Part shown: piece after piece, positions 5,730 through 63,654 of the stretch
Position numbering within the stretch: position 1 is the first letter of the stretch
Layout of the letters: the number at the start of each line of letters is the position of its first letter
NCBI GenBank assembly: GCA_964488025.1
Contig: CAZATJ010000002.1
Location: forward strand, 13,840-77,839
Direction of reading: 5' to 3'
Length of the DNA stretch: 64,000 bases
Source of the DNA: an uncultured Bdellovibrionales bacterium
GTDB lineage: Bacteria; Patescibacteriota; Minisyncoccia; Moranbacterales; UBA1568
Program-made: the position numbers and the translations under genes
The notes under the pieces: model-generated
What the model saw: only the letters and a program-made list of their open reading frames with translations
Told to the model about the DNA's origin: nothing
The model's database searches: none

Positions 5730-6089
5730 ATGTCACAAGATGTCTTGAAGGAAAAGATGGACGAGCTTGCTAAGGGCGTATATACCGTCACCAAGGTTTT
5801 TCCTAAGGAGGAAATATATGGGTTAACCTCACAAATACAGCGAGCATCACTGTCGGTTATCCTAAACTATATTGAAGGCTTTGCACGAACGGGGGATAAA
5901 GAATTTAAAAACTTCCTACAGATTTCCTATGGTTCATTAAAGGAAACCCAATATCTTCTTTTCTTTTGTACTCGTGAAGAATATATTAAAAAGGGAGACT
6001 ATGAGAAACTTATGAAGTTGTCAGACGAAATTGGGGCTATGCTTTGGAAAAGAATCAAAACCGTAAAAGAAAAAATCGCTAATAGTTAG
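5730..6089 (+). CDS. four-helix-bundle protein (23S rRNA intervening-sequence protein family, TIGR02436-like)
   Basis: Strong family match: YGLTSQIQRASLSVILNYIEGFAR and FLQISYGSLKETQYLL, the hallmark block of IVS-encoded four-helix-bundle proteins. 119 aa. Confidence 0.85.
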   Translation: MSQDVLKEKMDELAKGVYTVTKVFPKEEIYGLTSQIQRASLSVILNYIEGFARTGDKEFKNFLQISYGSLKETQYLLFFCTREEYIKKGDYEKLMKLSDEIGAMLWKRIKTVKEKIANS

Positions 6090-7494: not shown

Positions 7495-7983
7495 ATGAAA
7501 ACGGTGGTATATATTGATGGTGCAAATCTTCATCGGGGCACAGTAAATCTTGGCTGGAATTTAGACTATGCCCGTTTTCGAGTTTGGTTAGAAGATAAGT
7601 ATAAGGCGGAAGCGGTGTATCTTTTCATTGGGTTGATATCAAAAAACAAAGGTTTATATACTGCCTTGCAAGAGGCAGGATATATTTTGGTATACAAGGA
7701 AGTAACCTATGACGGAAGCGGAAAAGTGAAAGGGAATTGCGATGCTGAGTTGGTATTGAAAATGACTTCTGATTGCTATGAAAATCGTTATGATCAGGCG
7801 ATTTTGGTATCGAGTGATGGGGACTATGCCGGACTGGTGAGTTTTTTGAAAGAGAAGAGGAAATTTCGAGCACTTATTTCGCCGAGCAATAATTGCTCTT
7901 TTCTTTTGAGAAAATTGAATGTCCCCATTATCTATCTTGATACTAAAAGAGAAAAGTTAATGAAAAGAAAAAGCCCCCAATAG
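7495..7983 (+). CDS. NYN domain (LabA-like, PIN-fold) putative ribonuclease
   Basis: YIDGANL N-terminal acidic motif, CDAELVL and LVSSDGDYAGLV blocks typical of NYN/LabA domains. 162 aa. Confidence 0.65.
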   Translation: MKTVVYIDGANLHRGTVNLGWNLDYARFRVWLEDKYKAEAVYLFIGLISKNKGLYTALQEAGYILVYKEVTYDGSGKVKGNCDAELVLKMTSDCYENRYDQAILVSSDGDYAGLVSFLKEKRKFRALISPSNNCSFLLRKLNVPIIYLDTKREKLMKRKSPQ

Positions 7984-9225: not shown

Positions 9226-9290
9226 TTGTCCACATTTGTAAGTGGTCGTGGTGAAATGTGTACAGAGTGAAAATTTTAGAAAAGTAAAAA

Positions 9291-9347
9291 GCCGGGGAAC
9301 GTAGTTATCGTTCACCGGCTCTTGTTTTACCTGACGCGCTGGTCAGG
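9291..9347. terminator. bidirectional terminator pair between convergent genes
   Basis: gccggggaacgtagttatcgttcaccggc hairpin, preceded by aaaaa and followed by tcttgtttt. Then CCTGACgcgctgGTCAGG, a perfect 6-bp hairpin. Confidence 0.6.
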
Positions 9348-9353
9348 CGGAGT

Positions 9354-10271
9354 TCAGAAGAACTCGGGATGCTGGTAATCCGCCATCACGCCGCCCTTGA
9401 GGAATGACAGTTCCGGATCGGTGTGCTCCGCTTGCGCAAAGTAGCTCTGGCGGATGAACTTGGTGCCCATCTTGTTCACATGCCGCACGTAGCCCTCGGG
9501 GTCCAGCTTTGGATCGGGAGCCTGCCAGATTTTCGTGCCAACGCCACGGGGGAGGATGGGCGCGATACACGGGCCAAAGGTCCGGATGAGCCGGATGAGT
9601 GGCGTGATCTCCTCGACACCCGCGTTGTCGTAGACGTAGAAGAGTTTGCCCTTGTCCCAGGCTTCCGCACGGGACTTGATGGGCGCCTCCTTCTTCGGCT
9701 TGGCACTGCGGAGGTCGAAACCGCCGACCTGCATGAGCGACATGAGGTGCCACATGGCGAAGGTGTTCGCGATGCGGCCTTCCATGATGCTCTTGGTCAG
9801 TTCCGTGATGGCGAGGCCAGTCGCGAGCGCACCGGCTTCGGCGGCTTGGACGAGGTCTTCGGCAGCTTCGGGTGTGAAGTACGCTTCGGCTTCCTTCGAC
9901 AGGATGACACCGTAGTCGCACCCGGCCCGGAGCAGCTTAGCCGTGCCGTAGTTGAGCAGCCCGACGAAGATGTCGCCGTGGCGTACTTCGGACACGTATA
10001 CGTTCTTCCAGCCGGCTGTGGCGATGGCTTCGCGCAGCTGGGCAGCGGTTTCGCCGCAGTCCTTCTCGACGTAGTCCGGGTCCATGGGGACGAGGATCTC
10101 GACGCGTGAGATGAAAGCGCGGTCACCGACGGTCACCGACAGCATCCGTTCGACGCTCGCGAGGGCAAGCGTAACGGCGTTGTCGACGAGTTGCGGTTCG
10201 CGGGCGAAGCAGCGAACGATGGCGCCGATCTTTTTGGAATGCAGCAGTGACGACATGATGAATCTCCGCAT
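9354..10271 (-). CDS. hypothetical protein encoded in a GC-rich island
   Basis: 305-aa ORF at about 60% GC in a 45-48% GC context. No family confidently recognised. Its start lies in a 15-bp tandem duplication. Confidence 0.5.
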   Translation of the reverse strand: MRRFIMSSLLHSKKIGAIVRCFAREPQLVDNAVTLALASVERMLSVTVGDRAFISRVEILVPMDPDYVEKDCGETAAQLREAIATAGWKNVYVSEVRHGDIFVGLLNYGTAKLLRAGCDYGVILSKEAEAYFTPEAAEDLVQAAEAGALATGLAITELTKSIMEGRIANTFAMWHLMSLMQVGGFDLRSAKPKKEAPIKSRAEAWDKGKLFYVYDNAGVEEITPLIRLIRTFGPCIAPILPRGVGTKIWQAPDPKLDPEGYVRHVNKMGTKFIRQSYFAQAEHTDPELSFLKGGVMADYQHPEFF

Positions 10272-10283
10272 GATGAATCTCCA
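10254..10283. repeat. 15-bp tandem duplication covering RBS and start codon (minus-strand GGAGATTCATCATGY x2)
   Basis: Plus strand: catgatgaatctccg catgatgaatctcca. This creates two in-frame ATGs (M1 and M6) with duplicated GGAGA. Confidence 0.7.
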
Positions 10284-10447
10284 GTTGGTAAGCTCTCGGG
10301 GTTCTGTTCCCTTTGAGCATCCCGGTTTTCAAACCCAACCTTGCGGTTGAGGGACATGTCAGGCGTTTTATCCTGACCGACCATTATAGCAGAAAAATAA
10401 TGTATTGTCAATATAAATAAAGAAAAGTGGCTTATATAAAAGAAAGA

Positions 10448-10485
10448 AGCCGACCGTGCGCTATGCGCTTGGTCGGCTCTTGTTT
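10448..10485. terminator. intrinsic terminator (bidirectional)
   Basis: GCCGACCgtgcgctatgcgcttGGTCGGC stem followed by tcttgttt on the plus strand and ttctttctttt on the minus strand. It lies just 3' of the minus-strand stop at 10506. Confidence 0.6.
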
Positions 10486-10505
10486 GGCTCCTTGGGAGCC
10501 GGGGT

Positions 10506-10964
10506 CTAGACGGGAACGATGACGTTCACACCTTGGCGGAAGGGACGGATGTTGTTGTCTCGACACAAGATGACGTGGGTCATCCCCGGGTGTTTGCCCT
10601 GGGCAATCTCGTCAAAGAGTGTCCACTTGTCCCCGCCACCCGGTTCGTAGTCATCCCGTTGCACACTTTCGTGCTTGGCGAAGAGACGGATTCCATCTTC
10701 GAGAGTGAACAGTTCGCCACCGCAGAAGTGCGTGGGCGATTCGTTGACGGGGTCACTCTTGAGGCCGACCATCTTCTGGGTCTCATGGTCCATCACCTGG
10801 GCCACGTACTGGGTGTAGAACCGGAAGGACCAGGCCTTCTCGGGGATCTTCAGATCCTCGGTCGAGCGGTCAGTCGTCAGTCGGTCCCGGTTGTGGCTTT
10901 CGAGATTGCCGTAGAAACGGACATACGTCAACTTTTCGTAGTCGGTCATGTTTGCAAGCATGGT
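10506..10964 (-). CDS. hypothetical protein (GC-rich island)
   Basis: The start at 10964 is chosen because AAGGAG lies 7 nt upstream. The track ORF extends to 11024 without an RBS. No family recognised. Confidence 0.5.
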   Translation of the reverse strand, partial: TMLANMTDYEKLTYVRFYGNLESHNRDRLTTDRSTEDLKIPEKAWSFRFYTQYVAQVMDHETQKMVGLKSDPVNESPTHFCGGELFTLEDGIRLFAKHESVQRDDYEPGGGDKWTLFDEIAQGKHPGMTHVILCRDNNIRPFRQGVNVIVPV

Positions 10965-11022
10965 GCGCTCCTTGTGCGGTTTGGTTGGGGGGAAAGAACT
11001 GGTTGCGGATTGGCAACTGTTC

Positions 11023-11051
11023 ATTGTAGCATAGAATTATGGAAAAGTCAA
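11023..11051 (-). promoter_or_regulatory. sigma70-like promoter (TTGACT-17-TACAAT) for the minus-strand island gene
   Basis: Minus-strand reading: ttgacttttccataattctatgctacaat. Confidence 0.5.
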
Positions 11052-11127
11052 TAGTCATTCGTTGGCTTGAAATAGGAAAAAGGAGGGATTTGTGGTACAG
11101 TAGAGCTGAAATCGAACTTGTTTTACT

Positions 11128-18171: not shown

Positions 18172-19698
18172 ATGCAACTGACATGGAAAAAAACTTGGAC
18201 GATACTGCTCGTCATCATCGTTCTTGGCACGGCGCTCCGACTGTATGATTTGGGGAATAATTCTTTCGTGGCCGACGAGTTTCTGGATATGAACTCGAGC
18301 TACGGGTATTTTAAGACGGGAGAGTGGAAAGCCTGGGACTTCAATTTCGGCAGAGAATCCGAGACGAATTTCAACGCCGCTCGCGATGAACGTGCTTTTA
18401 TCTACAAGTGGCAGGTAGCAGGACTCTTCCATCTTCTGCCGCCGACCGAGGCGACGGCTCGTTTGGTAAGCGTGTTCTGGGGGATGGTTTCTATTCTAGT
18501 CATGTTTTGGACCGGGTACTTCTATACGCGAAAGAAAACTGTCGGATTGCTTTCGGCATTTCTGTTTGCGGTGAGCGTTTCCGGGATTATCTTCGACCGG
18601 CGGCTCCGCATGTATGCCATGTTTTTTCCCCTTTATCTGTCTTTGACCACGGTTTTATTCGCTTTTTTCGAGTCGGAGTATCGTGGCAGGATCAATTTCT
18701 TACGGAAAATGTGGGAGCGTTTTGGACTGAACGGTCTGTATCTGCTCCCGCTTATCGTGCTTGCTCTTCTGAGCGCCTTGGTTCACGGATTATCACTTTC
18801 GGTCATTCCGGTTTTCGGGGTCTATGTATTGTGGATGGCGTTTGTTTTCTGGAGAAGGGAGGGGACCCTGAAGAATAAATACGCGGTTACGGTAGGTTTC
18901 GGACTGCTTGGCATCGCTGCCGCCGTCATATTCTTCCCCAGGTTTGTGCGATTGGGGCTGGGGAGTCTTGTTTGGTTCGATAATCACTACTCGTATTTTG
19001 GCTACGTCCTGCGTGATTTCGCTCATCCTCTGCTCGGAGTACTGATGGCCGGTTTCGGTAGCTATGTCTTGGGAAAAAAACTTGGCCAACCGAAAGAAGC
19101 ATTGTGGGTGACTCTTTCGGCGGCGGTGCCCTTGATGCTGGCTGTTTGGTTCTGGCGTCGCAATGCCGGACCGCAGTACATATTTTTCATCCAATCTTTT
19201 GTAATCCTTCTTGCCGCTGTCGGTGTCTATGGGATGTTTCGTTTGGTTCGGGAACATTTTCCGGAACATGGCCGGAAGGGTATTTTCGCATTCCTTCTGT
19301 TAGCCGGGCTGCTTCTTCCGAATTACGGCTATTTTTTGGAAGAAAACAATACCTACCATGAAACCTCTACCGGCGGCAATCCGAATTATCGCAAGGTGTT
19401 TGATTATTTCAAGAAGAACCAACAGCCGGGCGAGGTGCTTATTACCCGAAATTTCCGCAATTATTACTTCTCCGGAGCCAAAGTCCCGGTCTATGATTTT
19501 GGCGGTGAACTTTCAACGAAGAAGTTTTCCCTTGCCGAATTAGAGGTCATTATGGCGGAGTATTCCCATGGCTGGGTCATTGTCTCGACGAATGATTACG
19601 ATTATATTTCCCGTGATGCGGAAGTGTATTTCAAGAAAAATATGGAGCAGGTGAGCAATTCGCAGGTGCGTGGCGCGGTAGAAGTATATCGCTGGTGA
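18172..19698 (+). CDS. PMT_2/ArnT-like GT-C family membrane glycosyltransferase (paralog 4)
   Basis: 508 aa, polytopic. SFVADEFLDM DE-motif loop. Confidence 0.7.
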   Translation: MQLTWKKTWTILLVIIVLGTALRLYDLGNNSFVADEFLDMNSSYGYFKTGEWKAWDFNFGRESETNFNAARDERAFIYKWQVAGLFHLLPPTEATARLVSVFWGMVSILVMFWTGYFYTRKKTVGLLSAFLFAVSVSGIIFDRRLRMYAMFFPLYLSLTTVLFAFFESEYRGRINFLRKMWERFGLNGLYLLPLIVLALLSALVHGLSLSVIPVFGVYVLWMAFVFWRREGTLKNKYAVTVGFGLLGIAAAVIFFPRFVRLGLGSLVWFDNHYSYFGYVLRDFAHPLLGVLMAGFGSYVLGKKLGQPKEALWVTLSAAVPLMLAVWFWRRNAGPQYIFFIQSFVILLAAVGVYGMFRLVREHFPEHGRKGIFAFLLLAGLLLPNYGYFLEENNTYHETSTGGNPNYRKVFDYFKKNQQPGEVLITRNFRNYYFSGAKVPVYDFGGELSTKKFSLAELEVIMAEYSHGWVIVSTNDYDYISRDAEVYFKKNMEQVSNSQVRGAVEVYRW

Positions 19699-36760: not shown

Positions 36761-36789
36761 AGAGGGTGTATTGACATAGCTACTTATCT
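36761..36789 (+). promoter_or_regulatory. sigma70-like promoter TTGACA-17-TATGAT
   Basis: ttgacatagctacttatctgtgctatgat, about 65 nt upstream of the EamA-like gene. Confidence 0.5.
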
Positions 36790-36853
36790 GTGCTATGATT
36801 CAATGTCAAAATAAAAGGATATACTGTGTACATTACCAACTGAGGAGAAAGCT

Positions 36854-37756
36854 ATGAACTGGATATTACTCGCTGTTCTTGGCGCATTTGCACAGGCACT
36901 TGGTGCGGCGGTCAAGAAAAAGGCATTGCAGACGCCGGGGATGAATAACGTCATCGGCTTCATGTCGTTCGTGGCAGCCGGGATATTTTTCTTGGTACTG
37001 ATGTTTGTCACGGGGTCGACGTGGCCAGAGGATCTGTCTCCTTCATTTTTGCAGGCGATGTTCTGGTACGCAGGACTCAATATCATCGCGGTATGGTTTT
37101 TGTATAAGGCGCTCGATATCGCCGAGCTCAATTATCTGATGCCGTTTATGGTACTGACGAGTCTGTCAATGATTGTTCCGCCGATGATCATACTGGGGGA
37201 GATCCCTTCGCCGGGAAGTTTCCTTGGTATCATCATCATCGTGATCGGGGTTTTGTGGATGAATTATTCCCCGAAGAAAGACCTTTCTCTCGAGGATGAG
37301 AGACGCAAGCGCGACAATCGTCGAGGACTGCTGTATTTCCTGGCGACAGCGGCATGTTTTACAGTAGCGCCGACGGCAGCAAAGATCACCGTGCAAGAAA
37401 CTTCGGTGTTATTCGCATCAATGGTCGTACACCTATTGATCGGGTGCGGCTTCTTGGTCATAGCACTTATCGCCGGAGAACTCAAAAAAGTTTCGGCGGT
37501 CGTAAGAGGTGGGAAATTCGCCGGACTACGAAATGGTATCCTGCTCGCGGGAGTGGCGATTGTCATCGAGAATGGGAGTATCAATGCCGCACTTGAGATG
37601 GCGCCAGTCGCGTCGGTAATGGCGATCAAACGGCTTATGCCATTCTTCGCCTTTCTCATTGGTTACTTCTATTTCAAGGAGCAGACCGATGTGAGGAAAA
37701 AACTCCTGGCGACAGCACTACTCATCGCTGGGGCCGTATTGGTCACGATATTTTAA
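36854..37756 (+). CDS. EamA/DMT family transporter
   Basis: 300 aa, 10 TM helices in two 5-TM halves. Confidence 0.55.
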   Translation: MNWILLAVLGAFAQALGAAVKKKALQTPGMNNVIGFMSFVAAGIFFLVLMFVTGSTWPEDLSPSFLQAMFWYAGLNIIAVWFLYKALDIAELNYLMPFMVLTSLSMIVPPMIILGEIPSPGSFLGIIIIVIGVLWMNYSPKKDLSLEDERRKRDNRRGLLYFLATAACFTVAPTAAKITVQETSVLFASMVVHLLIGCGFLVIALIAGELKKVSAVVRGGKFAGLRNGILLAGVAIVIENGSINAALEMAPVASVMAIKRLMPFFAFLIGYFYFKEQTDVRKKLLATALLIAGAVLVTIF

Positions 37757-55764: not shown

Positions 55765-56727
55765 CTATTGGCATGGTGGTTTGGGCCTGGGAATGACCTG
55801 AATAGCCCGGGTCGCTCGTGCTTCATCGCCACGCGGATAGTAGGACTGCGCCAGGATGCTGTGGTGACATTCTTTCTCCACTGGACAACGTCCGCAACTT
55901 CGCTGATAGCGTCGTAGCGTTTTGGCGTCATTCCAGTCTTCCGGTTCTTCCTTGATAGACCTGGCACAGCCTTCGCGTGAAAGCATGAAGAGCAGGTCGG
56001 AAAATTCCACGGGATGGACGCCGTAGCGATATCTCAGGTACTGTTCAGCTAATTTGTAACCAGCGACTGAGAGCGGGCGTGGACGCCGGAATGATTCGCT
56101 GGCCAGAATCATTTCCGTACTAAGCATGACTCGCAGGTGATGAAAGTCAACCGGTGGCGAAATGTGAATCAGCGGAATCAGCTGGGCATCCATCAGGAAA
56201 TAAGCGAGCATGGCGCATACTTTTTCCTGGAACATGAAAAATCCTTGCTCCTTGAGTGGTAGCTGATAGTCTTTCTTGTTCACGACCCGTTGGCGAAGTA
56301 TGTCGGCTGTAAGCCGACCCCGGAAGACGTTGAGGATGTCACCACCCCAAGCCATCAGGATTTCGGAGTTACGAAACCAGGCTTCACCGTAGCGTTGTGA
56401 TTTCGGCAGCTTCCCGAAAAGCTTCCCGAGCTTCTCTTCCATGATTTCCGGAGAGAGCGTCACGACGTGGCGGGGATCAAAAAGCTTAGGCTCTTCCCGA
56501 TACAGTTTGACCATCTGGGCCACCGCGTACTCGCTTTTGATCCGTCCCCGCATGAAGTGGCAGAGGTAGAAATAAAAGTTTGGCTTTCGGCGGAGTTCTT
56601 TCGGAATACGTCGTTGCGGCAGTCTGTCCAAATTGGCTTGGGTATAGGGAAATTCCCGCGCCCGGTAGGCCGAAATCAGACGCTCAAAGACCCGATAGGC
56701 CTGAGTAGAGTTGGTAAGGATCGTCAT
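55765..56727 (-). CDS. hypothetical protein with C-terminal Cys cluster (C-x2-C-x5-C plus an upstream Cys)
   Basis: 320 aa. RSCGRCPVEKEC resembles the Fe-S loop of HhH-GPD-type glycosylases, but no HhH motif was found. Low-confidence family. Confidence 0.35.
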   Translation of the reverse strand: MTILTNSTQAYRVFERLISAYRAREFPYTQANLDRLPQRRIPKELRRKPNFYFYLCHFMRGRIKSEYAVAQMVKLYREEPKLFDPRHVVTLSPEIMEEKLGKLFGKLPKSQRYGEAWFRNSEILMAWGGDILNVFRGRLTADILRQRVVNKKDYQLPLKEQGFFMFQEKVCAMLAYFLMDAQLIPLIHISPPVDFHHLRVMLSTEMILASESFRRPRPLSVAGYKLAEQYLRYRYGVHPVEFSDLLFMLSREGCARSIKEEPEDWNDAKTLRRYQRSCGRCPVEKECHHSILAQSYYPRGDEARATRAIQVIPRPKPPCQ

Positions 56728-56888
56728 GAAACTCCCCTTTCGGAAGTGGTTTGATTGCCTTCGAGTATACAGGAAACTAGGCTTTTAGCAAGTGTTTACT
56801 TATATTCGAACATGAAAAAACCGGAAGAGCGCGTGGCGCTTACTTCCGGTTCAAAGGATGTCCAACAACCGACCGTAGACCGGAATCG

Positions 56889-57728
56889 CTACTGGAGCGA
56901 CACCTGGTCTTTGGCGATAGCCACTGTGTTGCGGCCGGCAGCCTTGGCCCCGTACATGGCCATGTCGCTCCGGGTACGCGCCTCCTCGATGGCCTGGTTC
57001 GGATCGTCGGGAAATTGGTCCATGTGGACTCGTGCTACCCCGATGCTCACGGTGACGGTGAGGCCTTTGATGTGAAAATCGTGAGCTTCGACACTGCGTC
57101 TGATCCGTTCGGCCGTCGTCTCCGCTTCTTTGGTCGAAGCATTACTCAGGACGACGACAAATTCATCGCCACCGAAGCGAGCCGGGATGTCATCCTCACG
57201 AACCGCCCCCTTGATGATCTGGGCAATCACGGTGAGTACATTGTCGCCGACGGCATGTCCGTATCTATCGTTCACCGATTTGAACCGGTCTACGTCGATG
57301 AAGAGGATGCTGGTTTCTGGCCAGGCGATCTTCGGGCTGTGAGTCTCCTCACGAACCCGGGCGATGGTTCGGCCCACTTCGTGGGCGTGGCGATGAAAGG
57401 CCCGCTTCAAAGTATTCGGTCGGAGGAGCCCGGTCAGGTCATCGCGCCCCAGTTCCTCGCGGAGTTTTTCCAACTCCTCACTGTGGATTTTTTTGAGCGC
57501 GACCATCCATTCCATCACGTTTGTGGCCTGTTCCTGCAGAAACTGCATCGACTGAGCCATTGACTGAACTATCTCTTCGGATGCCGTAAGCATCTCAAAA
57601 AGATCCTTGTTTCTGGCGCGGAGCAATTGGAGCTCTAGCTCTTTCGGGCAGAGCTCCGGCCAGAGCTTCTCAACGAGTTGTTGCACCGCTTGGCCAATCT
57701 TCTGGCGCAGTGAGACTACTTTCTTCAT
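56889..57728 (-). CDS. GGDEF-domain diguanylate cyclase with N-terminal coiled coil
   Basis: RFGGDEF active-site motif, DVDRFKSVND, RIRRSV inhibitory-site-like RxxD. The start is taken at MKKVVSL (AAAGGGGA RBS). Confidence 0.8.
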   Translation of the reverse strand: MKKVVSLRQKIGQAVQQLVEKLWPELCPKELELQLLRARNKDLFEMLTASEEIVQSMAQSMQFLQEQATNVMEWMVALKKIHSEELEKLREELGRDDLTGLLRPNTLKRAFHRHAHEVGRTIARVREETHSPKIAWPETSILFIDVDRFKSVNDRYGHAVGDNVLTVIAQIIKGAVREDDIPARFGGDEFVVVLSNASTKEAETTAERIRRSVEAHDFHIKGLTVTVSIGVARVHMDQFPDDPNQAIEEARTRSDMAMYGAKAAGRNTVAIAKDQVSLQ

Positions 57729-57957
57729 GGAAATCCCCTTTCTTGGGAGGTTGGATTTTGGACAAGTATTTTCAAGGTACGCTGTCCATGATAGCACAAA
57801 ATATACTTTTTGTCAACCCTGCTTGGCAGGGAATTCTCTGCTACAATGAAAACATGATGAGTGATGCTAGATAGAGAAACAGCATGACTTGCCTCGATTT
57901 TTCTTAGGTATTTCATATCATTTATCCTGTATCACTTATCTCTTATTATCTTCGAAT

Positions 57958-59589: not shown

Positions 59590-59618
59590 CCTACCCGAAG
59601 GGCTGTAAATTTTTAACG

Positions 59619-59645
59619 GCTGAGGACATGGGACGAAGTTGGAAC
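59619..59645. repeat. 27-bp array repeat, copy A (GCTGAGGACATGGGACGAAGTTGGAAC)
   Basis: Matches the consensus GCTGAGGCTCTGGGACGAAGTTGGAAC at 24 of 27 positions. Confidence 0.75.
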
Positions 59646-59650
59646 TTTTA

Positions 59651-60193
59651 TTACCTCAGGTTTTTGAAGCAATTCAACCAAGTTGGCCACCAAGGAATTG
59701 AAACAAAAGCAATTATTAAGCTTGTTAAGCTTGTGATGATGAGAATATGTTTTTTTATGTATTCTAATGTTTTATTAGAAGTCTTGTTTTGAATATTTCT
59801 TCCCTCTTCTTTTTGAATACTATTGATTTTTAGGTTTTCAAGCGTTATTGAGTGCCCACTAATTTCTTTGATTTTTCCTGATATCTTAATTTTTGTTTTT
59901 TGGTGTAATGTTTTTAATTCAGGGTTTTCTTCCAGACTGATCGAGCCATAGATGGAAGGGTAAACACCATTGAGATCAACCATAGTCACCCAAAAGAGTT
60001 CATCTTCAGGAGAGGGGTCTTTGTCATACGGAAAGGAGGGATGGTTTTCTTTATATGGATTATACAAACTTCGAAAGAGAACTGTCCATTCACATTGAAG
60101 ACCAATATATCCTTTTTCAGCTTCCTTTTGGAGATATACTGGCATTTTAGAGACAGCATTGATAATCTCAATTGGGTTGGGTTTTATATTCAT
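59651..60193 (-). CDS. hypothetical protein with C-terminal TM helix
   Basis: 180-aa ORF at low GC. No family. Confidence 0.4.
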   Translation of the reverse strand: MNIKPNPIEIINAVSKMPVYLQKEAEKGYIGLQCEWTVLFRSLYNPYKENHPSFPYDKDPSPEDELFWVTMVDLNGVYPSIYGSISLEENPELKTLHQKTKIKISGKIKEISGHSITLENLKINSIQKEEGRNIQNKTSNKTLEYIKKHILIITSLTSLIIAFVSIPWWPTWLNCFKNLR

Positions 60194-60453
60194 AAAAAAA
60201 TACGGCGAAAATATTATGTGCTGGGAAAGAAGGGAGGTCTCGCTGCTCTCCGCCGGTTGGCGGATGCGCTCTATAGGGCTTCCCTGCCCGAAGTGCTACA
60301 TCGTTGCAGGCGGGCGCCCTCTAGCCCGGCAAAGCCGGTCACCTCAAACGGACAAACGGGTGTTTTCCCGACCCCTCTTCTCGTTCGATCCCTTTACCTC
60401 TACAGAATAAAAGAAAATCACCATACCCACAAGGGGCATAGCGATTTTTCTTA

Positions 60454-60480
60454 GCTGAGGCTCTGGGACGAAGTTGGAAC
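60454..60480. repeat. 27-bp array repeat, copy B (consensus)
   Basis: gctgaggctctgggacgaagttggaac. Confidence 0.8.
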
Positions 60481-60503
60481 GTATTTACGGAATCAAGCGG
60501 TTT

Positions 60504-61544
60504 TTAAAAGTTGATGATTACATCCTTATTCTTTGTGTTTATTTGAACGGGCATGCCGTAGGGTATGGGAATTTGTGGGTCCGTATGGCCAAAATCTAAA
60601 TTTTGTACAATGGGTGCGGTCTTATTATACTGCCGTATGATTTGTAGAGTAGTTTCTCTTTGTCTTTTTCGATATTCTTCTTTTTCTTCGCTACTTTTTT
60701 GATTATCGAATTCCCATGCCTTGGGCCGCCCAACAAGAAAACCCTTGATCCTTTCTAAGATCCCCCGTTCCCCCATGGCTCTATAAATACGCCTAACATA
60801 ATCCGGCGAAGGTATTTCCTCAGATGTTTCCGTTAGTAAAATGATATTTTCAAAATCTTCAAGTGACGGCATAGGAATAGCATGGCGGAGCAATTCATCA
60901 ATTGATTCAAGGCAACCTCCCCAAGTTACGCCCTCTGCATTTTGGTTACCATCCCAAAACCAACCAGCATTGGGCTCGTAGGACTTATTCTTTCTCAGGT
61001 TTTCTGGGTCATCCCAACTTAAACCTTGATCGCAGTATGCATCGCTGGCTTGAATCTTTACTTCACCTTGCTGAAAGAGTGCGAGTTCTAAATACTTGGC
61101 CGTATATTTGTTTATTTTTCCTGACTCGGCAAACTGGGTAAAGAGTGCCCCTCCGTAGTAGGAGGGAATTCCATTGAGCCACAGGAAATTCATAAAGTGA
61201 GTATTATCACTATACCCGAAAAACGGCTTTGGATTGTCTATGAATGGCTTCGAGGGAAGATCTTTTATATATGTTACTTGGTCGTCACCACCCAGAGAAG
61301 AGATGATTGCTTGTATGTTCTTATCTTCAAATGCAGCTATCAAGTCTTGAGCCCTCTCATTTTTAGAGGCACCTATCTTTTTTGTTGTTGGAAATTCTAC
61401 AGGCTCTAATTGAAAATTTTCTCTCAGTCTTTTTAGTCCAAGTTCGTAAACATGAGGCCATTTTCCGGGAGCAGCAAATGATGGCGACAAAATGGCAACC
61501 TTGTCACCTCCTGTTAACTTTTTAAGTTGAGTGAAATTTTGCAT
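60504..61544 (-). CDS. S66 family LD-carboxypeptidase (LdcA/MccF-like)
   Basis: GDKVAILSPS, GYSDNT (Ser nucleophile), FGHTD (His). 346 aa. Confidence 0.75.
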   Translation of the reverse strand: MQNFTQLKKLTGGDKVAILSPSFAAPGKWPHVYELGLKRLRENFQLEPVEFPTTKKIGASKNERAQDLIAAFEDKNIQAIISSLGGDDQVTYIKDLPSKPFIDNPKPFFGYSDNTHFMNFLWLNGIPSYYGGALFTQFAESGKINKYTAKYLELALFQQGEVKIQASDAYCDQGLSWDDPENLRKNKSYEPNAGWFWDGNQNAEGVTWGGCLESIDELLRHAIPMPSLEDFENIILLTETSEEIPSPDYVRRIYRAMGERGILERIKGFLVGRPKAWEFDNQKSSEEKEEYRKRQRETTLQIIRQYNKTAPIVQNLDFGHTDPQIPIPYGMPVQINTKNKDVIINF

Positions 61545-61554
61545 AAAACTATGT

Positions 61555-61581
61555 GCTGGGGCTGTGGGACGCTGTTGGAAC
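61555..61581. repeat. 27-bp array repeat, copy C (gctggggctgtgggacgctgttggaac)
   Basis: 23 of 27 match to the consensus. Confidence 0.7.
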
Positions 61582-61595
61582 TTATTTGTCTTATT

Positions 61596-61874
61596 CTAAA
61601 GCTTTATAGTTGCTATAATCTTTTCAAAAATATCCACGTTATCTTGGTTATCACCAGGGTAAGAGGCTACAATTGTATTAAATCCATTACTTATCAATGT
61701 GTCAACCCACAACTCTCCCGCATACGCTCCCCTATAGGATGTTTGTGTGGCTACAAGATTACCAACTTTTACTGTTTTTTGAGTGAAATTTTCATGGTTA
61801 TCTGTCTTTTGCTTATTGGTAATACTGCTAATATCTTCTTGTTTTGAATAGATTATGAGTTGGTTCATTATCAT
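61596..61874 (-). CDS. hypothetical small protein
   Basis: 92-aa ORF. Confidence 0.35.
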   Translation of the reverse strand: MIMNQLIIYSKQEDISSITNKQKTDNHENFTQKTVKVGNLVATQTSYRGAYAGELWVDTLISNGFNTIVASYPGDNQDNVDIFEKIIATIKL

Positions 61875-61955
61875 TGCGTCTGGGATACCATTAGGACTAA
61901 TTGTATACAGTCCTAAGATGATATCTTGGCAAGAAGAAATAGCTCCGGGGGTATT

Positions 61956-62759
61956 TTAGTCTAATCCCACTTTTCTTTTTTTCCAATGTTCAATGTTACT
62001 GCTAACCTTAATAATTTTAGGTAGTTTGTTATCATTTATTAGCGATGAGTCTAGGACAGGAACCGGAAGAAATTTGAAACTATTGAGCACAGCTTCAACT
62101 TGTTTTCTCTCCGTTTTATTTATAGTGCCTTTATACGAGATGCTATCTTCATAGTAATTACACTGAGAAAGATCAATTTCTTGATCCTTACGTGTGCAAA
62201 TAGTTTGTTTATTGAACACCATATTGCTTCCGAAGAGAAACCCTGACTCATTCCATACACCGCTAGGATAATTTTCAAAATTCGTTATAGTGGCCCATGT
62301 TGATCTGTTTATAAGAGGATAATCAAAAGAAGCCCTTATTTTTTCAGAAAACTTTACGGTTGAAGGTAATGTTACTCCAGGAATGCCTTCTGTTGATATG
62401 CCCTGGGGAGCAATAAGTACAAATGTCCCCTGGGTAAAGTGGCTAGCCCCATTGGCGTTATCAAAAGGATTGTCAGGGCTATTCTTATAGAAAATGATTA
62501 CCGGGTCGGAACCCCTATCAAATTCTTTGTATGTCCAACCATTTGGAAGGACTACTTGAAAATAATATTTTGTATTTGTATATATGTTATTTTCAAAACG
62601 ACTTATAACTTCTTTTTTTGAAGTTTCGGCGGGCGTTATTGTTAAATTTACATGGTCCTTTTTAGGAGTTGATATTTGTAGAGAAAAAAGAGCAACTATT
62701 GTTGCTAAGATTAAAATTATAAAAATGGCTAAAGATGAATTTATTTTTCTGTAAAACAT
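61956..62759 (-). CDS. hypothetical secreted protein (signal anchor)
   Basis: 267 aa, N-terminal LAIFIILILATIVALFSL helix. Confidence 0.4.
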   Translation of the reverse strand: MFYRKINSSLAIFIILILATIVALFSLQISTPKKDHVNLTITPAETSKKEVISRFENNIYTNTKYYFQVVLPNGWTYKEFDRGSDPVIIFYKNSPDNPFDNANGASHFTQGTFVLIAPQGISTEGIPGVTLPSTVKFSEKIRASFDYPLINRSTWATITNFENYPSGVWNESGFLFGSNMVFNKQTICTRKDQEIDLSQCNYYEDSISYKGTINKTERKQVEAVLNSFKFLPVPVLDSSLINDNKLPKIIKVSSNIEHWKKRKVGLD

Positions 62760-62811
62760 ATTTTTTTATATCATAACACAAAAGCACCATTTTAGGTGCT
62801 TAAAAGTCTTA

Positions 62812-62838
62812 GCTGAGGCTCTGGGACGATGTTGGAAC
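62812..62838. repeat. 27-bp array repeat, copy D (gctgaggctctgggacgatgttggaac)
   Basis: 26 of 27 match. Confidence 0.8.
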
Positions 62839-62871
62839 CTATTTATTGCAAGAATTACCCTAATTAAAGCC

Positions 62872-63654
62872 TTATTCTGTAAATTTGTCTATCCAATTGA
62901 GAAATAGGCTTCTTATCTCCCCTAAATGTTCCTTTTCTCTGAAGGTATGTGGTGCGTTTTTGATAACATGAAACTCTTTTTCTCCTGGCAAAGCATTAAA
63001 CAGGATCCCTACTTGGTCTGGTGGAGTAGCAGTGTCATTCTCCCCAACAATGAGGAGGACGGGCATGGTAAGTTTTGAAGCCTTTGGAAGCAAATCGTAT
63101 TGTAATCTATCGATAATATGTGTCCACGGGAGTCTTTTGATAACCCCTGGTCTGGAAACGCTTTGCTCTTCTTTCCATCCTGTCTTCTCCCATCTCATGA
63201 AGTCATCTGGCTTAAAACGTTTGTGAGCCTCAACGCTCAGTTGACCAGATACAACAGGAGAAATCGGCGCGAGCGCTAAAACTTTTTCAGGATATCTTTC
63301 TGCAAAGAGTGCTGTGCAGATACCGCCTAAACTATGACCAGAAAGGGCAAAGAGCTCTTGATACCACACCTGATCTTTCGCCCAAGAAATCACATCCTCC
63401 AGATCCTCGTAGTAGTTCGTAATAGTGGCATCTTCGTATTTTCCGTCACTCTCACCGAAGGTATTGGTTGTATCAAAGCGTACAACAGTAAATCCTCGTT
63501 CCTGGAAGGCGTTTGCAATAGTGATAATATGATTTTGTTCCTTGAAACCACCAAGTCCGTGCATGACAAAGGCCAATCCGTTCTGATTCTCAGTTTGTTC
63601 AACAATCACAGAAACATTCTGTTCTTTGCGATTTTTGATAAAAAGTTTTTGCAT
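62872..63654 (-). CDS. alpha/beta hydrolase
   Basis: HGLGG oxyanion region and GHSLGG nucleophile elbow. 260 aa. Confidence 0.75.
   Translation of the reverse strand: MQKLFIKNRKEQNVSVIVEQTENQNGLAFVMHGLGGFKEQNHIITIANAFQERGFTVVRFDTTNTFGESDGKYEDATITNYYEDLEDVISWAKDQVWYQELFALSGHSLGGICTALFAERYPEKVLALAPISPVVSGQLSVEAHKRFKPDDFMRWEKTGWKEEQSVSRPGVIKRLPWTHIIDRLQYDLLPKASKLTMPVLLIVGENDTATPPDQVGILFNALPGEKEFHVIKNAPHTFREKEHLGEIRSLFLNWIDKFTE

Follow-up and report, generated by a model that had tools for sequence, protein, structure and literature searches.

Two transcription units in a surface-glycan cluster

The window analysed here is a 64-kb stretch of the genome of an uncultured, Moranbacteria-like member of the Patescibacteria (Candidate Phyla Radiation, CPR), a group that makes up a large share of bacterial diversity, is mostly uncultured and has much unannotated gene content. 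The interval 9291-11055 of the window is set apart by its high guanine-plus-cytosine (GC) content and holds two minus-strand genes, which we call geneB (9354..10256) and geneA (10506..10961). We somewhat favour the reading that the interval consists of two autonomous monocistronic units, A and B, built for high expression and lying in a conserved but variable slot of a cell-surface glycan cluster. Selection at the codon level for very high expression would have kept the two open reading frames (ORFs) GC-rich over long divergence, and the product of geneB, a soluble transferase of predicted GT-A fold, would act with the surrounding glycan genes in surface-glycan synthesis. Genomes and loci used for comparison are denoted by L and a number.

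The two units lie head to tail on the minus strand and have a common anatomy. A sigma70 promoter of the extended -10 type stands first, a hairpin marks the inferred 5' end of the RNA, the ORF follows a strong Shine-Dalgarno (SD) sequence and is rich in GC at its third codon positions (GC3), and two hairpins make up the intrinsic terminator, a combination that would be expected to give each unit high expression of its own. The unit B promoter (10383..10411, minus strand) is a perfect TTGACA-17-TATAAT with the TG of an extended -10, and it is the sole site in the 64 kb to score 12/12. The unit A promoter (11023..11051, minus strand), TTGACT-17-TACAAT with a TG upstream of the -10, scores 10/12 with the TG, and cassette units of L006, L013, L016 and L051 have homologous promoters (aTTGACTttt...tgcTAnnAT). 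The same design, aTTGAC(T/A)-17-(tgc)TAnnAT with a hairpin directly after it, was present in every unit of all genomes seen. An earlier reading of the window, made from its letters and a list of its ORFs (the sequence-only reading), had already pointed out the unit A promoter at 11051-11023 and an AAGGAG ribosome-binding site, which we confirmed at 10973-10968, with 6 nt between it and the ATG at 10961. That reading had also called such promoter signals rare in the window, but 23 sigma70-like sites in it score at least 10/12. Most other window genes have no obvious SD sequence.

The unit A terminator (10436..10500, minus strand) is made of a short GC hairpin (10486-10500), a long hairpin (10444-10481) and a U-rich tract, with a folding energy of -33.6 kcal/mol (z=-6.1), and is homologous to the terminator 3' of the geneA homologue in L051. 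Because this terminator stands between the genes and a second promoter precedes the larger one, the interval holds two transcription units and not the single two-gene unit of the sequence-only reading, which had overlooked both signals. The bidirectional terminator that it had placed at 9291-9347 is real. This element (9275..9348) serves geneB on the minus strand and a convergent glycosyltransferase (GT4) gene on the plus strand, and consists of a short hairpin (9329-9348) and a long hairpin (9287-9323) with U-tracts on both strands; the minus-strand RNA 9275-9353 folds at -30.4 kcal/mol (z=-5.0). The 12-mer CGGCTCTTGTTT is common to the unit A and geneB terminators.

The start of geneB is doubled by a 15-nt exact tandem duplication, with GGAGATTCATCATG present twice at a period of 15 (10254..10282, minus strand; two exact copies, where 0.01 would be expected by chance). 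The copies, at 10254-10267 and 10269-10282, each carry the SD sequence and the start codon, and they give geneB two in-frame starts, five codons apart. The upstream ATG at 10271, which arose in this way, would yield the 305-aa protein proposed earlier; homologues start at the ATG at 10256, so that a start there, with a product of 300 aa, is most likely. The smaller protein, previously put at about 152 aa, is 151 aa long (10506-10961).

Three independent assemblies of the same strain (L001, L004 and L005) stop in the geneB promoter, with the break at its -35 or a little way inside it (window 10411 and 10403), and two other same-strain assemblies read through this promoter into geneA. The assembly ends at the -35 suggest strain-level variation upstream of the promoter. 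An assembly chimera was considered as the source of the GC jump and was ruled out, the same junctions being present in five independent assemblies and in syntenic relatives.

GC content is 57.5% in the interval 9291-11055; same-size windows elsewhere in the 64 kb have a mean of 47.1% (standard deviation 2.8, maximum 54.5%), which confirms that the interval is much GC-richer than its flanks (z=3.8). The earlier figure of about 60% fits the larger ORF (0.620) and is slightly high for the whole interval (0.575). The excess is confined to the two ORFs with ORF precision, at 0.620 for geneB and 0.566 for geneA, and the three spacers have host-like values of 0.43-0.47. Third codon positions carry most of it, with a GC3 of 0.81 in geneB and 0.77 in geneA and of 0.28-0.67 in the other long ORFs of the window. 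Overlapping ORFs are indeed present on both strands, as had been remarked, and arise from the high GC3 of the two genes; the minus-strand ORFs are the genuine ones, since they have homologues and their GC3 is frame-specific.

A conserved slot with variable content

The window neighbourhood is a cell-surface glycan cluster that encodes a GT2 and a GT4 glycosyltransferase, a UDP-glucose dehydrogenase, an LPG_synthase_TM-family protein and three PMT_2 glycosyltransferases. The place of geneB, with the LPG_synthase_TM gene on one side and the GT4 gene on the other, is the same in the window and in six relatives (L006, L013, L016, L017/L010, L055 and L057). The content of this slot varies: L017/L010 have geneB alone, the window has geneA and geneB, L057 has geneB and a 288-aa ORF, and L055 has geneB, a 305-aa ORF and an epimerase gene, while in L016 a second leader follows geneB. 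L051 carries a geneA homologue and a 271-aa ORF followed by an EamA transporter gene, and the promoter, leader and terminator of this geneA homologue are all homologous to those of unit A. In L058 (2720-3583), an rve-family (IS-type) transposase gene stands directly upstream of the geneB homologue and replaces the LPG_synthase_TM gene. In L008 and L014, geneB is found between a metallo-beta-lactamase-fold gene (LactB) and nusA, again as an isolated GC spike. The accessory slot proteins belong to recurring families of unknown function. Several such accessory cassettes fill the slot interchangeably in different genomes, and geneA, which besides the window was seen in the slot of L051 only, is one of them.

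The slot of L006 (8640-12720) contains four unrelated GC3-rich ORFs in tandem (306, 300, 278 and 148 aa, the 300-aa ORF being geneB), each preceded by a terminator-promoter-leader module of about 240 nt. The copies of this module are 88-99.5% identical, a clear case of concerted evolution of regulatory modules around unrelated genes. Such tandem arrays, with near-identical modules around unrelated ORFs, suggest a homologous-recombination route of cassette exchange at a surface locus, which is relevant to surface variation in episymbionts.

Identity along the window locus is mosaic. By its flanks the window is closest to L016 (LPG-synthase gene 73% identical, flanking ORF 18172-19698 72%), whereas geneB is only 58% identical. 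Compared with L006 and L013, geneB is 82-83% identical and the LPG-synthase gene 42-43%. In nucleotide alignments the geneB ORF is 75-88% identical to the group formed by L006, L013, L014 and L008, and just past the geneB stop codon the affinity changes, the terminator matching L016/L017 at 85-90% identity and L006/L013 at about 50%; the bidirectional terminator is 85-93% identical to its equivalent in L016/L017, unlike the ORF. Because the ORF groups with L006/L013 and the terminator with L016/L017, these alignments indicate that the ORF allele of geneB was probably replaced between conserved regulatory modules. ORF alleles and whole cassettes would be swapped in this manner, through homologous recombination bounded by the conserved leader/promoter and terminator modules, and the exchange of cassettes appears to be homologous and not site-specific.

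The sequence-only reading had proposed a recent horizontal acquisition, in which both genes would have come together from a GC-richer donor and their composition would not yet have drifted to that of the host. Exchange did occur, as the mosaic identity shows, but it was not a recent import of two genes, and GC content is not a sign of foreignness here. The composition is atypical for the host and ORF-precise, the phylogeny of geneB is at odds with its flanks (the ORF grouping with L006/L013, from hosts of 55% GC, and the flanks with L016/L017), geneA is rare, with one identical copy and a few distant relatives among 5.8 billion clustered proteins, and codon usage is sharply unlike that of GroEL in L008, all of which an import would explain. 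The genes form two separate units, however, and geneB is present at the same site in L006, L013, L016, L017, L055 and L057 (geneA in the slot only in L051), a synteny that already largely refutes the acquisition. In addition, the GC excess recurs across lineages, with geneB homologues at least 5 points of GC above their flanks in 17 of 24 species-level loci; geneB exceeds even the GC-richest hosts (0.63-0.65 versus 0.55); and Glu and Gln codons are unshifted.

Signatures of mobility were not found either: there is no tRNA in the window, no integrase or other mobility gene among the neighbours, and no flanking repeat beyond the terminator 12-mer. No geneB relatives were found in IMG/VR, tblastn against phage and plasmid collections gave no match for either protein, and no homologues were found outside Patescibacteria-type metagenome-assembled genomes (MAGs). 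The loci L008 and L014 bear most directly on the age of the composition. They share the order LactB-geneB-NusA-YidC, with identities of 70%, 80%, 88% and 84%, respectively, and geneB has a GC3 of 0.71-0.77 in both, with neighbours at 0.32-0.43. Since the GC3 excess has been kept through co-divergence with the flanks, a distance over which neutral foreign DNA would have taken on the composition of its host, the composition is maintained and is not that of un-ameliorated foreign DNA. Any transfer of geneB would be old, because the window ORF is only about 80% identical at the nucleotide level to its nearest relatives. Taken together, a recent acquisition is very unlikely. A sharp, terminator-bounded GC island, classically taken as a mark of horizontal transfer, can be a maintained codon effect confined to ORFs, which calls for caution in the automated detection of islands and horizontal gene transfer in MAGs.

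Two low-GC genes of the window also lie in the glycan cluster (5730-6089 and 7495-7983, both plus strand; GC 0.37 and 0.38). Their products are a four-helix-bundle protein like bAvd/23S-rRNA-IVP and an NYN-domain ribonuclease. Neither gene is present at the equivalent position of L006, and they look like variable accessory insertions.

Codon usage and the cause of the GC excess

Highly expressed bacterial genes prefer C-ending codons for Phe, Tyr, Ile and Asn and use GAA for Glu, a pattern that forms the basis of Sharp's S index. The C-ending fraction for these four amino acids is 0.96 in geneB and 0.85 in geneA, with a window median of 0.43. Lys is encoded by AAG at 0.83-0.88 in the two genes, whereas Glu remains at the host value (GAG 0.36) and Gln is likewise unshifted. 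Cassettes of L006 and L057 show the same codon pattern, and in L014 Glu and Gln are shifted as well. When about 700 ORFs from 37 loci were ranked by the C-ending measure, geneB homologues and their cassette neighbours dominated the top. Ribosomal-protein genes, drawn for this comparison from other Patescibacteria loci and not from this genome or a close Moranbacteria relative, share the pattern in a weaker form: the S1 gene of L056 has a C-ending fraction of 0.67 with AAG at 0.82 and GAG at 0.23, S20 of L052 has a C-ending fraction of 0.78 against 0.38, and S4 and S11 of L037 have 0.97 and 0.94 against 0.68.

On this codon evidence, selection tied to very high expression, and not a foreign source, is the most likely cause of the GC excess. 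We consider this the simplest reading because the codon pattern coincides with the strongest promoter, with an SD sequence where most genes lack one and with hairpins at both ends of the transcript. Among the genes of the window, geneA and geneB combine the strongest expression signals with the most extreme codon bias; if they are expressed as these features suggest, their products would be very abundant proteins and prime targets for proteomics and structural work. The likeness to the selected codon bias of highly expressed genes lies in the direction of the shift, in the codons concerned and in its coincidence with the strongest promoter and SD signals. It differs in being stronger than that of ribosomal proteins, in affecting an enzyme-like protein and small unknown proteins, and in being absent from GroEL in one host; moreover, organisms of the Patescibacteria type are expected to have weak codon selection.

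Several observations weigh against high expression as the cause. Little or no GC excess is seen in 7 of the 24 lineages, the description of the genes as highly expressed comes from signals and codon usage only, and the codon comparison draws on other Patescibacteria lineages only. GroEL and GroES of L008 show no C-ending preference (0.25 and 0.18), and geneB of the same genome has 0.76. The bias of geneB exceeds that of ribosomal-protein genes wherever both were seen, and its log-odds of about 3.5 against the window median is unusually high for slow-growing bacteria with small genomes. Four-fold degenerate sites are also shifted to G or C, so that part of the excess may come from a general upward pressure on GC, biased gene conversion for example.

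In a rival explanation, the slot would be a recombination hotspot in which cassette ORFs are often exchanged between lineages, by homology, through the shared leader and terminator arms, and the accompanying gene conversion, biased towards GC (gBGC), raises GC3 regardless of expression. The mosaic identity with breakpoints near the ORF ends, the near-identical modules of L006 that indicate ongoing conversion, the variable slot content, the assemblies that break at the geneB promoter and the shifted four-fold sites are in keeping with it, as is the finding that recombining genes are GC-richer across bacteria, independent of codon selection (PMC4450053). The L006 modules that bear the clearest signs of conversion are, however, not GC-rich (0.45-0.47 in a host of 0.55), and the shift is not uniform, Lys being moved to AAG (0.83-1.0) and, in three of four hosts, Glu (GAG 0.36-0.60) and Gln keeping to the values of the host or close to them. 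The GC3 shift of +0.3 to +0.4 is also far above typical gBGC effects. As the cause of the excess irrespective of expression, gene conversion therefore seems to us rather unlikely.

Selection could also act on the mRNA itself, in that a GC-rich, A/U-poor coding sequence, together with the 5' hairpin and the strong 3' hairpin, would shield the transcripts from ribonucleases that target A/U and so give long-lived messages. A 5'-terminal hairpin lies directly after the -10 box in every unit, the terminators are double hairpins, the codons AAA, UUU, AAU, UAU and AUU are avoided, and the NYN-domain ribonuclease gene is 1.4 kb away. Retention of GAA does not agree with this explanation, however, and the presence of the codon pattern in ribosomal-protein genes is more simply accounted for by selection on decoding; we hold protection of the message to be improbable as the driving force.

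A structured leader RNA upstream of geneB

The geneB ORF is preceded by a structured leader of about 120 nt (10257..10377, minus strand), as supported by folding, covariation and a covariance model. From its inferred 5' end, the leader consists of a P1 hairpin (10358-10377), a three-way junction (10319-10355) and a P3/P4 hairpin with an internal loop (10292-10318; GAUGCY...GGG-loop-CCC...RGC), followed by a conserved UACCAAC box (10284-10290; unpaired YUACCAAY) directly before the SD sequence GGAG (10279-10282), which is duplicated at 10264-10267. In 12 leaders of the Moranbacteria type, the 19 modelled pairs are 91.7% paired, and seven pairs, in 13 cells of the alignment, have changed on both sides; slid controls on the same 12 leaders gave much less pairing and at most three cells changed on both sides. 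The leader therefore has a conserved secondary structure with compensatory changes, at a modest depth of 12 to 22 partly related sequences.

For the geneB leader, a covariance model (R1) was made from the 3' core, which is seen across 22 leaders. R1 found the leader upstream of geneB in 18 further loci or units, distant lineages included, and also before neighbouring cassette genes in L006, L016 and L057. In 0.3-0.55 Mb of flanking DNA it found nothing convincing elsewhere, barring weak matches before an unrelated gene of marine contigs. The box together with a start codon occurs 20 times in the 1.19 Mb searched on both strands: 13 times before geneB homologues, five times before neighbouring cassettes, once before an EamA transporter gene and once before a response-regulator gene in L059. 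A role of the UACCAAC box as a general translation signal was considered and rejected, since the box is almost confined to geneB and cassette genes and most window genes lack an SD sequence.

The EamA-family transporter gene lies in the window (36854-37756, plus strand; region 36771..37756 with its signals). Its promoter is a near-consensus extended -10 site, TTGACA-17-TATGAT with TG (36771-36799), and its box, TACCAACTGAGGAG (36834-36847), is the same as that of the geneB leader and stands 6 nt before the ATG. By this promoter and box, the transporter may be a member of a geneB regulon. In L051, an EamA gene is located directly 3' of the cassettes.

The leader may determine how well the mRNA is translated, how stable it is, or both, with a trans-acting factor or a ligand as a possible mediator, and control of this kind is proposed because the box abuts the ribosome-binding site. 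Like known cis-regulatory 5' leaders and riboswitches, the geneB leader is a multi-stem RNA of about 120 nt with covarying pairs and conserved unpaired nucleotides next to the ribosome-binding site; its occurrence before unrelated neighbouring cassette genes is a further likeness. It differs from them in that it matches no Rfam 15 family and that no ligand, alternative fold or terminator/antiterminator switch was identified. Rfam 15 gave no match in the window at gathering thresholds, and on the leaders nothing relevant at E<=10. We regard the leader as a candidate cis-regulatory RNA outside Rfam that is common to geneB and to unrelated neighbouring genes.

The 3' core of the leader (GGGAAYAGAACCC ... 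CUACCAACUG; window 10284-10311, minus strand; L006 9960-9992) resembles, in reverse complement, a tRNA T-arm followed by a D-loop, and UACCAACU is complementary to AGUUGGUA. Descent of the leader from a tRNA was rejected as something that could be demonstrated, ARAGORN finding no tRNA and Rfam no tRNA match at E<=10 on either strand.

A pattern scan of metagenomes for the leader yielded a single true geneB locus, the remainder being mostly marine contigs of unrelated context, and so left the family no larger. In these marine contigs (52-57% GC; L040 6293-6347, minus strand, L043 9458-9512, plus strand, and six similar ones), a box GGGAATCGAACCC...ACCACCAACTGGAG stands 6 nt before an ATG. The gene behind it is GC-rich (0.67) and encodes a 111-aa Gly/Ala-rich zinc-ribbon protein, with a RadC-like gene beside it on L040. 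The leader model gave weak matches of 22-26 bits on these boxes.

The geneB protein

The 300-aa product of geneB represents an unannotated family found across the Patescibacteria. The 142 homologues found in a collection of 5.8 billion proteins all lack a Pfam domain, and wherever a curated organism name is attached it belongs to the Patescibacteria (Moranbacteria, Paceibacteria and Kerfeldbacteria); Falkowbacteria and Doudnabacteria are among the further groups that came from scanning species-representative genomes. As the sequence-only reading had stated, neither protein of the interval has a family match: searches of Pfam, NCBIfam, PADLOC and PHROGs returned nothing for geneA, geneB or members of their families, and 39 members of the geneB family gave no Pfam match at E<=1. 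No threshold match to the Pfam GT2 family (PF00535) or to another curated glycosyltransferase sequence family was obtained for geneB, and a sequence profile search of the PDB with the geneB family returned noise only. With hhalign, nothing significant was found between the geneB family and the two GT2 proteins of the window, or between it and the 306-aa and 271-aa cassette proteins; a phmmer search of the PDB with three cassette proteins gave no match. Both geneA and geneB proteins lack a transmembrane segment and a signal peptide.

In its predicted structure, the geneB protein is a single Rossmann-like alpha/beta/alpha GT-A domain. The closest known proteins are GT2-like GT-A glycosyltransferases, namely the Pyrobaculum mannosyltransferase PcManGT (PDB 6yv7), mannosylglycerate synthase (2bo4) and glucosyl-3-phosphoglycerate synthase (7p5l), at an identity of only about 10%. 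Certain acidic and basic residues are invariant throughout the family, but no invariant DxD was found among 39 sequences; after the predicted beta4 (residues 115-119) comes an invariant S120-x-x, a position equated to the DxD site through the secondary-structure string and not through a residue-level superposition. Some GT-A families are metal-independent. The invariant C-terminal residues K262, K266 and R269 suggest that geneB could be a metal-independent variant of the GT-A fold.

We conclude from the predicted structure that geneB probably encodes a divergent GT-A enzyme. It may be a nucleotide-sugar-dependent transferase without the canonical DxD that works with the surrounding glycan genes. 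A caution for this part of the interpretation is that glycosyltransferase activity, substrate and the missing DxD are all taken from a predicted structure with about 10% identity to its templates. A fold and a probable role in cell-surface glycans can now be attached to a conserved family of at least 142 proteins that is unnamed in sequence databases. Literature searches found no description of the geneB family, of the leader or of the GC pattern.

Unit A and the geneA protein

The leader of unit A (10962..11017, minus strand) is shorter than that of geneB and unlike it, sharing the promoter type and a 5' hairpin. From sequence and fold, it consists of the hairpin, a CCAACCAAACC tract at the place of the geneB leader's box, and the SD sequence AAGGAG (10968-10973). 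The same layout, hairpin - CCACCAAC - AGGAGG, is found upstream of the geneA homologue in L051. The 151-aa product is a soluble, mostly beta protein of a small family confined to Patescibacteria. Its structure was modelled with confidence and no fold match was found, so that geneA is, by its model, a beta-rich protein without a fold match.

In L059 (5542-5556), a TTACCAAGGAGGA box precedes the response-regulator gene, and a distant member of the geneA family comes next. This distant member has no GC enrichment, which indicates that the GC excess is a property of the slot cassettes and not of the whole geneA family.

Comparison with known systems

Like hypervariable surface-polysaccharide loci such as those for O-antigen and capsule, the slot lies inside a surface-glycan cluster, has variable content between conserved flanks and shows disagreement between the phylogenies of ORF and flanks. 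In contrast to such loci, its GC deviation is upward and ORF-precise, and instead of forming a long operon its genes are units of their own, each equipped with a near-consensus promoter, a terminator and a shared leader. The slots of the relatives also resemble integron gene-cassette arrays, with small unrelated genes in tandem at one site, a repeated module bounding each of them and varying content. The cassettes differ from those of integrons in having their own promoters and terminators, and the repeated module is promoter-leader-terminator and not attC. Neither intI nor promoterless cassettes were found, there being no integrase among the called neighbours, and no attC was noted, although attC was not searched with a dedicated model.

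With low confidence, we put forward that leader, promoter and terminator might together form an undescribed, Patescibacteria-specific cassette system, in which a portable module of about 240 nt both drives co-regulated high expression and serves as a homology arm for ORF swaps in one slot. The leader with its UACCAAC box would then be a new riboswitch or protein-binding element, sensing for example a nucleotide sugar or the state of the envelope. Its regulon would comprise geneB, the 306/288-aa family, the 278-aa and 148-aa proteins and the EamA transporter, with geneA and the 271/305-aa family as fellow occupants of the slot.

Other compositional features of the window

The second most GC-rich patch of the window (55765-57816, minus strand) contains a GGDEF diguanylate-cyclase gene (56889-57797; GC 0.558, GC3 0.67) with the promoter TTGACA-17-TATCAT (TG) at 57816-57788, and an adjoining gene for a 320-aa unknown protein (GC 0.53). 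Near the right end of the window, the stretch 59600-63000 is low in GC (0.34-0.42 per kb) and includes several ORFs with a GC3 of 0.28-0.39.

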